This document shows, one piece after another, positions 6,964 to 55,223 of a stretch of DNA of 64,000 bases. The notes beneath the pieces were generated by a model, which did no database searches, had not been told where the DNA came from, and was given only the letters and a program-made list of their open reading frames with translations. Numbering within the stretch: the stretch's first letter is position 1; each line of letters begins with the position of its first letter. A program made the translations under genes and the position numbers. Source of the DNA: Rubripirellula sp. (GTDB taxonomy: Bacteria > Planctomycetota > Planctomycetia > Pirellulales > Pirellulaceae); NCBI GenBank assembly GCA_965216875.1, contig OZ244207.1:992001-1056000 (forward strand), given 5' to 3'.

Positions 6964-7159
6964 CCTCGCACCTGTTTCTCTTGCGTCTGTCTTTGGGCTC
7001 GTCTGTGACCGCGCGATGTGCGGCCGTGTAACCGTTCGTCACATGCGTGAGCCGAACGTCTTGGCATTCACTAGACTGCATGGGTGCACTTCACGCTGTT
7101 CTTTCAACGGCAATGAGACGAATCAATACGCGGGATCGGTGCCTTTGCACTGCAGGAAC

Positions 7160-51719: not shown

Positions 51720-51747
51720 TAAGTAACCAGGAGTGACGTGCCGATCC

Positions 51748-52089
51748 ATGAACAAGAAAAAGAAACCTGCCAAGTCTGCTGACACGACCAAGCCGGTTGG
51801 AAGCGTCCAAGCGTTTGTCGATGCGGCCGAATGCCTCAAAGCACTCGCCCATCCAGTCAGGCTGCGGATTGTCCAGTTGCTGCTCCACGGCCAGTTCACC
51901 GTGGGGGAGATCGCCGAGGATTGCGAGATTCCTGACAATGTCGCGTCGGAACACCTTCGGTTGCTGCAGCGTTGTGGGTTTTTGATCAGCGAGCGCCAAG
52001 GACGCCGGGTCTACTACCAAGTGGCGGAACCGCATTTGGAGCAAATGATGGCTTGTATCGAAGGTCGATTTTTGGCCAGCGGCGCCTGA
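51748..52089 (+). CDS. ArsR/SmtB family repressor
   Basis: LKALAHPVRLRI..LL, SEHLRLL, RQGRRVYY. Confidence 0.92.
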   Translation: MNKKKKPAKSADTTKPVGSVQAFVDAAECLKALAHPVRLRIVQLLLHGQFTVGEIAEDCEIPDNVASEHLRLLQRCGFLISERQGRRVYYQVAEPHLEQMMACIEGRFLASGA

Positions 52090-52112
52090 GCGTCTCTCTT
52101 ATTTTGAACGAT

Positions 52113-52132
52113 ATATCGTCACCTCACGAGAT
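52113..52132 (+). promoter_or_regulatory. Second ArsR operator-like site
   Basis: ATATCGTCACCTCACGAGAT versus ATATCGTGACGTCGCGATAT (16 of 20 identical). Confidence 0.55.
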
Positions 52133-52173
52133 AACGACAGCTGACTTCAAGCAAACTTGAAAGGAAGAAAGTG

Positions 52174-52722
52174 ATGAACACCATCTCGCCAAAACGGCTC
52201 GCAGACACCAACGCATCGTCGCCCGTTGAGTTGATCGACGTACGGACGCCGGTGGAGTATCGCGAGGTTCATGCAACGCCAGCGCGCAACGTTCCTCTCG
52301 ACACGCTCGATCCTGAGGCGCTGATGGGTGGCCGCAATGGGAATGCCGGTGAGCCGCTTTATGTGATTTGCAAATCGGGCGGTCGCTCGACTCAGGCTTG
52401 CCAAAAGCTGATCGCCGCCGGACATGACAACATCGTCAACGTCGAAGGAGGCACAGACGCATGGGTTGATGCGGGGTTGCCGGTGCAGCGTGGAAAGAAA
52501 GCGATGGCACTGGAGCGGCAGGTACGCATTGCCGCTGGAGCGTTGGTCCTGATTGGCGTCGCACTCTCCTTCTTCAATCCTTACTTCCTGGGCCTCTCCG
52601 CCTTTGTCGGTGCAGGGTTGGTCTTTGCCGGTGTCACAAACACCTGTGGCATGGGAATGCTGCTGGCCAAGATGCCATGGAATCAGGTGAGAGGCTGCGA
52701 CAACGGATCATGCTCGGTTTAG
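52174..52722 (+). CDS. Rhodanese + DUF2892 membrane sulfurtransferase (YgaP-like)
   Basis: LIDVRTP.EY, CKSGGRS active loop, ERQVRIAAG, TCGMG.LLAKMPWN. Confidence 0.92.
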   Translation: MNTISPKRLADTNASSPVELIDVRTPVEYREVHATPARNVPLDTLDPEALMGGRNGNAGEPLYVICKSGGRSTQACQKLIAAGHDNIVNVEGGTDAWVDAGLPVQRGKKAMALERQVRIAAGALVLIGVALSFFNPYFLGLSAFVGAGLVFAGVTNTCGMGMLLAKMPWNQVRGCDNGSCSV

Positions 52723-52926
52723 CCCCGTACTCGTGCTCGTAATCGGCCTGAGCAATTTCGGCCGGATTGATAACGAGTACCGCAATGCTGAGCACGAATT
52801 CGTAGGGTGTGTGCTTGCACGCACCAACACGAGATTGATGCGCGAAAGCACACGAAAGAGAGACGTGAGACGAGTGGACGCGAAGAACCGCTCTGGTATC
52901 GCCGACGCACTCGTCCCACATCGCAG

Positions 52927-53002
52927 TGACCAAGGAGGGAGTCGAACCCCCAAATTCACGAGCCTCTCATGCTCGCCGCTTTGCCGGTTTGCGTACTTGG
53001 TC
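52927..53002 (-). tRNA. Non-canonical tRNA-Leu(GAG) with 7-nt variable region
   Basis: GACCAAG-TA-CGC-AAACCGGCAAA-GCG-G-CGAGC-ATGAGAG-GCTCG-TGAATTT-GGGGG-TTCGACT-CCCTC-CTTGGTC-A; all stems pair. Confidence 0.85.
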
Positions 53003-53030
53003 GCAAGAAGTAGTGTCCTGATGGCGCAAC

Positions 53031-53061
53031 AAAAAAGGCTCGATGCCAGTGACATCGAGCC
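53031..53061 (-). terminator. Intrinsic terminator/attenuator between leader peptide and tRNA
   Basis: GGCTCGATG-7 nt-CATCGAGCC followed by T6. Confidence 0.8.
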
Positions 53062-53089
53062 GCTACGAATTGCATTCGTTTTGCCGATC

Positions 53090-53176
53090 TCACACGGGCC
53101 TATCGCCTCCGCTCTCACCACATGAGAGTGAATCAAGCGAGCAGGAGGTGCAGTTGTATGGATAACGGCTATTCAT
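53090..53176 (-). CDS. Putative leader peptide MNSRYPYNCTSCSLDSLSCGESGGDRPV
   Basis: 28-codon ORF whose stop lies 28 nt before the terminator stem. Confidence 0.45.
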   Translation of the reverse strand: MNSRYPYNCTSCSLDSLSCGESGGDRPV

Positions 53177-53252
53177 GATTCAATGCGATTCTTGGGGGTC
53201 TGTTGAAAGGTAAAGACAATCGCCCCTCGCGAAGGTTCACGCATAAAAGCAG

Positions 53253-53316
53253 CGTAGGGTGTGTGCTTGCACGCACCGATCGCGTGACATTGGTGCGTGC
53301 ACGCACACACCCTACG
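53253..53316. repeat. Inverted REP doublet, family D (single copy also at 52801-52825)
   Basis: CGTAGGGTGTGTGCTTGCACGCACC and its reverse complement. Confidence 0.8.
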
Positions 53317-53340
53317 AAAGAACGCCTGGACAATTATCCG

Positions 53341-54240
53341 TCAAACGCGGATGGCGACGCGCAGTTTGGCGCTTCGCGAGCGTGGGTTCTCGGCGACTTC
53401 GCGATCGCTCGGTCGAAGCGGTTTCTTGGTCATCACTTGCCAGCGTTCATCGTCGCTAAATGCATTCTTGACGATGCGGTCTTCGAGCGAATGAAAACTG
53501 ATCACCGCAACGCGGGCACCGCTTGAAAGCCAATCGGGCGCCGACTTGAGTGTGCGTTGCAGGATATCAAGTTCTTCATTCACCTTGATTCGCAGCGCTT
53601 GAAAGGTACGCGTTGCCGGGTGAATGTCATGATTCTTGCTGCGTGGAACACAGCGTCGGCAAATGTCGACCAAGTCGTTGACCGTTCGCACCGGACTTTC
53701 GTTACGCCGCTGGGCAACGATTTCGCGGGCGATCCGGCGACTGTAGCGTTCTTCGCCATATTGATAGATCACGTCGGCGATCGCTTGCTCTTTGTTCCAG
53801 GCGAGCCAATCAGCAGCACTGCAACCATTGTCGGGATCAAACCGCAAGTCGAGCGGGCCATCTTCGGTGAAACTAAACCCACGCGAGCGATCGGCAAGCT
53901 GATCACTCGAAAGGCCGAGATCCAGCACGAGTGCGTCGGCCGCTTCCAGCTCTGTCGCCGCCAACGCTCGCGGTGCCGCTTCGTAGCTTCCCAAGAAAAG
54001 GCTGAGTCTCGGGTCGTGTGTTTCGGTCTCGAAACGCTCGGTGACGGCGGGATCGCGATCGAGCGCAATCAAGTGCTTGAGGTGATCGCCCAGTGTGTCG
54101 ATCAGTCGTTTCGAATGTCCGCCGCCGCCGTAGGTGCCGTCGACGACGATTTTGGGCAGGGCGATGCCATCACCAATGTCTTCCGCGACCCAATGAACGA
54201 TTTCATCGGGCATGACCGAAACGTGACAACTTTGTGTCAT
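53341..54240 (-). CDS. rsmH: 16S rRNA m4C1402 methyltransferase
   Basis: HVSVM, DGTYGGGGHS, DLGLSSDQL, HPATRTFQALRI, NPRSRSAKLR. Confidence 0.96.
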   Translation of the reverse strand: MTQSCHVSVMPDEIVHWVAEDIGDGIALPKIVVDGTYGGGGHSKRLIDTLGDHLKHLIALDRDPAVTERFETETHDPRLSLFLGSYEAAPRALAATELEAADALVLDLGLSSDQLADRSRGFSFTEDGPLDLRFDPDNGCSAADWLAWNKEQAIADVIYQYGEERYSRRIAREIVAQRRNESPVRTVNDLVDICRRCVPRSKNHDIHPATRTFQALRIKVNEELDILQRTLKSAPDWLSSGARVAVISFHSLEDRIVKNAFSDDERWQVMTKKPLRPSDREVAENPRSRSAKLRVAIRV

Positions 54241-55223
54241 CCAAAGACGCTCTTGACTGTCTTGCTGCAGTGAAGGGCTTTTTCCAAGTTCCCGCTGACC
54301 TCTTTGAGGCGATTGAGGTCGCCCCCGCCAACTTCGGCGGCGAGCCAACCGGTGAACTTGATGTCCTGCAACGCCTTCTCGACTTCAGGCCAATTGATAT
54401 CCCCTTCGGTGATCTTGGCCCAGCCTTGTTTGGCGCGCGAGTAACCCTTGATGTCCAATTTTTTGATACGAGGACCAAGCGTGCGAATCCAGCCCGCCGG
54501 GTCACCGTACTTCCAATGGTTGCCGATATCGAACTGGACGCCAACCCAGGGCGAATCGAAGGCATCGACAAACTGAGCCAACTTGTCGGCGGTTTGGTCG
54601 TCGCTGCCATCGTGGTCGTACAAAAAATGGTTCCAGACGTTTTCGATCAAAATCGAAACACCGTGCTTTTCGGCATCCGGAAGCGCTTCGCGAATGCCCG
54701 CCATCGATCGTTCGAAGACTTCGGCTTCGGAGCCGTCCTTGCCGTGGCCTGGGACAAGCAGCATGGTGTCGGCGCCAACCGCTGCCGTTTCGGCGATCCC
54801 TTGTTTGAGCCGCTTGAGTGCATCGGCGCGGACTTTGGGATCGGGATCGCTATGTCGCACGCCCCAGTGATAGCCGCCAACCGTACCATCGATGATCAAG
54901 CCACTCGCTGCTGCGGCCGCCTTGGCTTGTTCCACATTGATTCCGGGCGTGTTGAGTTCGACCCCTTCGAATCCCGCTTCTTTGGCAGCTTTGAACTTGG
55001 CAACCAAGTCTCCCTCGACCCGGATCATGCCGATCTTGAGCGTCTTGCGCAGCCAGGGCAGTTCTTCTGCTGGCAGGGGATGCTCTTTGCCCCAAAGTTG
55101 ACTTGTCGCTGGCAGCGTCAACGCAGCCGCCGTCGCGCCTGCCATCGAGCGAACAAATTGACGTCGAGATTGTTCAGGTCGCATGTTTCTATTCTGTGGG
55201 TTGTTCATTTGTTTCGCACTCAA
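54237..55223 (-). CDS. Tat-exported sugar-phosphate isomerase/epimerase (TIM barrel)
   Basis: SRRQF leader; IENVWN, FDIGNH, LDIK. Confidence 0.88.
   Translation of the reverse strand: MSAKQMNNPQNRNMRPEQSRRQFVRSMAGATAAALTLPATSQLWGKEHPLPAEELPWLRKTLKIGMIRVEGDLVAKFKAAKEAGFEGVELNTPGINVEQAKAAAAASGLIIDGTVGGYHWGVRHSDPDPKVRADALKRLKQGIAETAAVGADTMLLVPGHGKDGSEAEVFERSMAGIREALPDAEKHGVSILIENVWNHFLYDHDGSDDQTADKLAQFVDAFDSPWVGVQFDIGNHWKYGDPAGWIRTLGPRIKKLDIKGYSRAKQGWAKITEGDINWPEVEKALQDIKFTGWLAAEVGGGDLNRLKEVSGNLEKALHCSKTVKSVFG

Follow-up and report, generated by a model that had tools for sequence, protein, structure and literature searches.

A one-gene tRNA-Leu(GAG) cassette in a Rubripirellula genome with a putative leader-peptide attenuator of planctomycete tRNA arrays

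Why would a Rubripirellula genome keep a solitary tRNA-Leu(GAG) gene that lacks the long variable arm of its class, and how might such a gene be controlled? The gene lies in a window of 64,000 nucleotides (the whole stretch of DNA analysed here), where ARAGORN calls a tRNA-Leu(gag) at 52926-53002 on the minus strand and a local Rfam search matches RF00005 at 52927-53002 (44.9 bits, E value 3 × 10−8), a match absent from the fast-filter Rfam scan of the whole window. Its stems are fully paired (acceptor 7 bp, D 3 bp, anticodon 5 bp and T 5 bp with one G-U), its variable region is 7 nt long and its anticodon loop reads A32 U33 G34 A35 G36 A37 G38. A class II tRNA-Leu(GAG) would have a long arm and a G37 for TrmD; the 7-nt region and A37 place the gene outside that class, and its cloverleaf, Leu anticodon and variable loop of less than 10 nt are those of a type I tRNA-Leu. 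A14, A20a, A15:U48 and A73 can all be read from the sequence, including the Leu identity set of U8:A14, A15:U48 and A73, and leucylation by a planctomycete LeuRS is plausible, judging from sequence and from analogous enzymes. Like almost every other tRNA gene in the genome, it encodes no CCA. The fold has a z score of −2.14 (3 of 200 shuffles are equally good), and a public run of the organism (kind unrecorded, and possibly the source sample) shows no alternative letters over the stretch. Three RNA runs under the same species label gave no contig that covers it, a result that speaks neither for nor against expression. Reading the gene as an att site or a pseudogene was rejected, since a genome BLAST with the gene returned only array paralogues and the stems are intact.

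The gene belongs to a sizeable family. Searches of relatives, combined with a pattern scan of GTDB genomes (at least 119 stretches), gave at least 126 distinct short-arm Leu(GAG) genes in at least 171 loci, almost all of them in planctomycete arrays; nearly all titles among the 80 matches listed for the pattern scan are planctomycetes, and the pattern matches 86 of 401 family genomes. Across the 126 genes listed, 98-99% of stem cells are paired (acceptor 870/882, anticodon stem 620/630, T stem 620/630), and the stems are kept through compensatory change, with several pair types. The variable region spans 5-9 nt in these genes, with 7 nt in 91, and A73 and A15:U48 occur in 124 and 125 of the 126, counts for which the search patterns fixed the D arm, so that A14, and largely A15, were preset. 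A37 is found in 31 of the 32 family genes obtained via BLAST and in 90 of the 97 pattern matches for which G was permitted. A32 is a lineage trait (9 of the 126 genes listed). At the next position, C33 replaces the near-universal U33 in 100 of the 126 array Leu(GAG) genes listed (for example, in loci L003, L004 and L014), and the window copy has U33.

By its structure and sequence, then, the window gene is an array-class type I tRNA-Leu. Sequence comparison indicates that neither the short arm nor A37 is a local oddity: both are traits of the family to which array tRNAs of this kind belong, and a short arm by itself is an ordinary finding. The original prediction had described the short variable arm, the paired stems, the GAG anticodon and the loop AUGAGAG, all of which ARAGORN, RF00005 and the sequence bear out, and the Leu identity elements it named (A73, A14, 15:48 and A20a) are present, with A73 and A15:U48 kept across the family listed. 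Its proposal that the tRNA is independent of TrmD would follow from A37. It had also taken the gene for a singular exception to class II tRNA-Leu, which it is not, being the standard Leu(GAG) of planctomycete arrays, and had offered a pseudo-tRNA as the alternative if stems decayed in orthologues, which is not supported, as the orthologue stems covary. The combination A32/A37/G38 in the loop is real, but G38 is no peculiarity, since the housekeeping Leu(GAG) of the genome also has it.

A canonical tRNA-Leu(GAG), the presence of which the original prediction had marked as worth checking, does exist elsewhere in this 8.26-Mb genome of 99 ARAGORN calls: it has the long arm and G37 (G000:C1:3165451-3165536), and TrmD is encoded too, along with RlmN and a single LeuRS (open frame of 944 aa). 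The genome has three array blocks (C1:591-595 kb, 607-608 kb and 628-633 kb), the last of which holds a paralogous short-arm Leu(GAG) together with short-arm Leu CAA, TAG and TAA. The window tRNA differs from this array copy at 18 of 76 positions, compared with 8 of 76 for the nearest gene in another genome among the matches listed, and we therefore discarded the idea of a duplicate of the genome's own array gene. With one tRNA gene, the locus is not the long co-oriented cluster of an L-array, and it shares with L-arrays a supernumerary gene, a patchy spread and an array-type sequence. It is the sole gene among the 126 listed without another tRNA on the same strand in its locus (loci of 0.4-14 kb); in 40 further loci, no other single-gene cassette was found, the smallest having 5 tRNAs. 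No orthologous cassette follows rsmH in G001 and G002, two other genomes of the genus, which have other DNA and no tRNA there. The neighbouring genes, at 51733-52722 (+) and 53341-54243 (−), encode an ArsR-family regulator with a rhodanese-YgaP protein and rsmH/mraW, respectively, and we found no link between either and the cassette.

What lies upstream of the tRNA, a promoter, leader ORF and attenuator that the original prediction missed, is more informative than the tRNA (Table 1).

Table 1 Features of the cassette and its flanks, in window coordinates.
Feature	Position	Strand	Basis or remark
REP-like palindromic repeat, upstream side of the cassette	53253-53316		
ECF-sigma-like promoter motif (GAACC, spacer, GTCTTT)	53212-53238	−	Family position upstream of the leader
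28-codon leader ORF, ending Arg-Pro-Val-TGA, rich in Ser, Cys and Gly	53090-53176	−	ORF at the family position
Predicted antiterminator: strand 53093-53083 (with the leader TGA) pairs with the terminator 5' arm, one G-G mismatch	53048-53093	−	Folding
Intrinsic terminator, 11-bp stem (53061-53037) and T6	53031-53061	−	Hairpin family of the genome's array heads
Type I (short-variable-arm) tRNA-Leu(GAG), planctomycete tRNA-array family, no encoded CCA	52927-53002	−	ARAGORN, Rfam
Long hairpin, 15-bp closing stem, beginning 4 nt after the tRNA	52862-52922	−	Fold z −3.37
REP-like repeat half, downstream side	52802-52826		88 + 84 genome matches with at most 2 mismatches

The promoter motif, which we take to be of ECF type, scores 19.0 bits in the window; 15 real sites in the genome and 7 shuffled ones score at least as high, and this score alone is not compelling. 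Its position recurs, with GAAC-N17/18-GTC upstream of the leader in 39 of 43 aligned leaders, and no sigma70 promoter was found in 52700-53400. The array promoter matrix also scores at G000:C1:1193149 (+), 2193089 (+), 392693 (−) and 3426052 (+), sites that presumably precede an initiator-type tRNA-Met gene and ORFs resembling EF-Ts, EF-Tu and a ferritin/Dps-like protein; relative to shuffled DNA, its sites are enriched only some twofold. From the main text of PMC7826278, no ECF group could be named that matches the motif.

The leader ORF is short and stops just before the terminator, which stands 34 nt ahead of the tRNA. Before the 3' arm of the terminator is transcribed, the antiterminator is the favoured fold of the nascent RNA (−17.9 kcal/mol, z −3.13, equalled by 0 of 200 shuffles), and the complete leader RNA of the window folds as the terminator (−24.3 kcal/mol); these energies lie within the range of the family. 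The two modelled structures are mutually exclusive, and a ribosome on the stop codon would cover the antiterminator strand. The exact start of the terminator hairpin occurs three times in 8.26 Mb, in the window and at two array heads; a looser hairpin pattern occurs four times and adds only the third array head, and the control module is likewise found four times, at the three array heads and in the window. The window leader is the weakest of these four, at 36 bits compared with 55-70 at the array heads. Rfam has no match to a T-box or another catalogued leader RNA over 53003-53240 (−) at an E value of 10, and none over the leaders of four relatives at an E value of 0.1.

The same arrangement precedes tRNA clusters in other genomes. 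A terminator lies less than 200 nt from the first tRNA of the cluster in 46 of 68 upstream regions, and a covariance model finds the leader in 12 of the 22 regions without such a terminator, so that neither method detects one in 10 of the 68. When 43 leaders are aligned, the terminator shows 99.2% pairing and 44 both-side changes, a result that none of 500 shuffles attains, as expected of an intrinsic terminator maintained by compensatory change. An invariant TGA about 42 nt upstream of the terminator opens a strand complementary to the terminator 5' arm, and the resulting antiterminator is 88.3% paired, compared with 26-41% for slid partners. Since there is almost no variation in the core, covariation of the antiterminator is weak (16-19 of 500 shuffles match it on cells, and 135-194 of 500 do so for pair counts); the G-G mismatch of the window falls at a nearly invariant pair. 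This alignment, A1, left out L024 (a duplicate of L001), L057 (identical to L047) and L098, L102 and L122, which have no TGA within the chosen distance. The leaders are kin, and shuffles and permutations overstate significance throughout.

An ATG-initiated ORF of 25-60 aa ends on the family TGA in 40 of the 43 leaders, compared with 4 of 67 nearby control stops; L117, anchored on the wrong TGA, is scored as a miss in this count. Most of the peptides close with (Y/H)-P-L-R-L and vary synonymously in their codons, Arg standing at −2 in 35 of the 43 through five synonymous codons, an ending of P-L-R-L that the window leader does not have. Among 19 leaders outside the model, the ORF is present in 18 and the promoter motif in 11. 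In a sample of the phylum, 19 of 121 genomes match the covariance model. Of 24 matches examined, seven have their TGA where the model places it together with an ATG ORF of 26-51 aa, and every one of these seven leads into tRNA genes; the remaining 17 have no tRNA downstream and are mostly plain terminators, and the possibility that the same switch precedes protein genes was dropped. One of these 17, L203, has a 51-aa ORF that ends three bases off. Near 6995 (+) in L104, the array promoter motif stands directly before a Leu(GAG), with no leader and no terminator.

Leader codons match the tRNAs of their own arrays. Over 20 chains of at most 20 tRNAs, some of which are only the heads of interrupted long arrays, the match was reached in 0 of 20,000 permutations, a test that the relatedness of the leaders inflates. 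Six tuned leaders (L111, L106, L035, L005, L114 and L120) have z scores of 2.1-3.3 and reach 39-81% matched codons; no matching was seen in L064, L110, L112 and L122. A conserved mini-array of seven genes (Phe, Glu, Ser, Leu x3, Ser) recurs at L035:2074-2155 (−), L238-L241 and L246-L248, with L035 and L246 leaders made up largely of Leu, Ser, Glu, Phe and Arg codons; leader and tRNA set correspond in a similar way in L111, L005, L120, L114, L106 and L208. We consider it quite likely that leader-peptide attenuators with matched codons form a class-wide system for switching on tRNA arrays in planctomycetes.

Attenuators of amino-acid operons (trp, his, leu and ilv) combine a leader ORF, a stop codon on the antiterminator strand and an exclusive pair of antiterminator and terminator, and bmrBCD carries an antibiotic-responsive leader-peptide attenuator. 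The tRNA leaders share with both the short ORF, the stop on the antiterminator strand and a mutually exclusive antiterminator and intrinsic terminator. Unlike in the amino-acid attenuators, the genes controlled are tRNA genes and the regulatory codons are spread, multivalent and matched to a set of tRNAs; the window leader likewise lacks a run of cognate codons. We infer ribosome-coupled switching from the parts of the module, their conservation and the two folds, by analogy with these systems. An ECF-type promoter would start the leader RNA and a ribosome would translate the 28 codons. A ribosome that has reached the TGA while the polymerase is in the terminator region would mask the antiterminator strand, allowing the terminator to form and keeping the tRNA off, a state whose geometry is given by the folds and whose timing is presumed. 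Under slow decoding, caused by tRNA shortage or damage or by ribosome-targeting antibiotics, the ribosome would lag, the antiterminator would form and transcription would read through into the tRNA. The control module thus probably turns spare tRNAs on upon ribosome stalling. In the window, the product would be a type I tRNA-Leu(GAG), probably CCA-tailed and charged by the single LeuRS, that could serve as a TrmD-independent backup for CUU and CUC codons.

How, then, did a single gene come to carry this switch? The window leader matches its tRNA at only 2 of 27 codons, which are not in tandem (z 0.59); the other 25 are for absent tRNAs, mainly Ser, Cys, Gly, Tyr, Asn, Asp, Arg and Pro. Because its codons point to missing Ser, Cys, Gly, Tyr, Asn and Asp tRNAs, we find it fairly probable that the cassette is a one-gene remnant or offshoot, a stump, of a planctomycete spare-tRNA array that has kept the whole control module, and the window cassette is a convenient, probably orphaned example of the array attenuator.

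The two matched codons suggest another reading, in which the cassette is a feedback unit of one tRNA kept for a purpose: CUU and CUC would sense a failing m1G37-dependent Leu(GAG), through a TrmD shortfall or a nuclease recognising the long arm or loop, and induce the short-arm A37 substitute. Both Leu codons of the leader (14 and 17) are CUU/CUC codons read by the anticodon GAG, compared with a CUY share of 23% (38/167) of Leu codons in other leaders; as many GAG-read codons occur in 1 of 39 other leaders, a comparison that omits L081 and L117. Counted back from the stop, they are at 12 and 15 codons, and a ribosome stalling there would leave the antiterminator free; promoter, ORF, folds and tRNA stems are intact despite the 18 differences from the array copy. 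However, the z score is far from the 2-3.3 of tuned leaders and the 40 further loci hold no second cassette of this kind, and we regard as unlikely both this reading and its corollary, that the cassette is a tRNA feedback loop as small as any that a bacterial chromosome could contain and, with its single gene, the extreme case of the class-wide system.

Intactness could also be a legacy. The absence of the cassette after rsmH in G001 and G002, its redundancy with the two other Leu(GAG) genes of the genome, a leader composition suggestive of lost partner tRNAs, the position between REP-like repeats and the weakened leader score all fit a recently orphaned relic, silent or uncharged and not yet decayed, whose intact parts reflect past selection within a larger array. 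We hold this to be distinctly improbable, given that no near-identical parent appears among the matches listed (the nearest is 8/76 off), that stem changes keep pairing and that all elements of the module are in place and fold as in the family.

The stump reading, in which the tRNA would be made and charged, can be set beside known cases. Streptomyces LeuRS charges a type I tRNA-Leu(CAA), which E. coli LeuRS does not; no other prokaryotic LeuRS is known, according to the same study, to accept both types of tRNA-Leu, and 5 nt is the shortest workable variable loop for type I (Fan et al. 2019, PMC6614811). The window tRNA resembles this S. coelicolor tRNA-Leu(CAA) in its short loop (7 nt here, 5 there), the coexistence of type II tRNA-Leu and the single LeuRS; it differs in having GAG and A37 and in being supernumerary and array-derived.

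In Anabaena PCC 7120, translation stress induces an array of 26 tRNAs, of which 23 are reported as aminoacylated in vivo (PMC8421152); its promoter is described as sigma70-type, with the repressor TrcR (PMC8421152, PMC10272220). All four Leu genes of this operon lack the long arm, with TAA, TAG and CAA intact, and the Leu(GAG) (L218:1753-1830 (−)) has a broken T arm. With four short-arm Leu genes and 23 of 26 tRNAs charged, at least one short-arm Leu product should therefore be charged there, with an amino acid that the report leaves unnamed. The window tRNA is like this L-array in being supernumerary and patchy and in its short-arm Leu, and stress induction would be predicted here as well. 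Unlike the L-array, the window locus has one gene, an ECF-like promoter and a leader-peptide attenuator; at the Anabaena operon, model R1 detected no leader of this kind.

Phage tRNAs with altered anticodon loops are proposed to resist host nucleases and to act as a backup against tRNA depletion (PMC10264068). The 75-nt Leu(GAG) of mycobacteriophage Stubby is also a short-arm Leu with a similar D-arm design, and unlike the window tRNA it keeps G37. Odd loops are equally a trait of the array family (C33 in 100 and A32 in 9 of the 126 genes listed, A37 nearly always), some Anabaena operon tRNAs migrate oddly and the array Leu(GAG) there looks decayed, which might suggest a stress-induced tRNA mimic or decoy (a substrate for nuclease or repair activity, or a donor of Leu outside the ribosome) instead of a decoder of CUY codons. 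We judge this very improbable: the window copy has U33, the family conserves both its anticodon and its Leu identity elements, the agreement of leader codons with array anticodons implies that the tRNAs decode, and the Anabaena operon tRNAs tested are all reported in polysomes (PMC8421152).

A leader attenuator that tracks codons would tell us what the arrays respond to, namely slow decoding of specific codons, and the tracking of tRNA content by leader codons supports the use of array tRNAs in translation. At 330 nt, with promoter, leader, switch and one tRNA, the stump is the simplest unit for testing array control, and it also suits asking whether a LeuRS from outside Actinobacteria charges a type I tRNA-Leu. 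The codon-matched attenuator of planctomycete tRNA arrays, well supported computationally by sequence and folding, does not appear in the literature searched; this literature, with few subscription papers and including the accessible part of PMC4833913, gave no account of leader-peptide attenuation of tRNA genes, of a short-arm Leu(GAG) family or of the control of spare tRNA arrays outside cyanobacteria. An 8-nt complementarity between leader and anticodon loop was set aside, as it falls within a local hairpin and the fold of the entire leader ORF does not surpass that of shuffled sequences.

The hairpin downstream of the tRNA has no homologue in the loci or the genome and no Rfam family. From its modelled fold it is possibly a 3' end, a processing structure or a small RNA; a decayed tRNA was rejected, for want of Rfam or ARAGORN support and of a homologue. 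It sits where full arrays have structured RNA past their last tRNA. Elsewhere in the genome, we noted a well-formed tRNA-like gene with anticodon CUA (ARAGORN: Pyl) at G000:C1:3282034-3282109 (+) and a Glu-like tRNA with an 8-nt anticodon loop at G000:C1:3442059-3442132 (+). Apparently structured non-coding stretches of roughly 600-700 nt lie near array heads, at about G000:C1:607200-607850 (−) and after 1587 (+) in L208.
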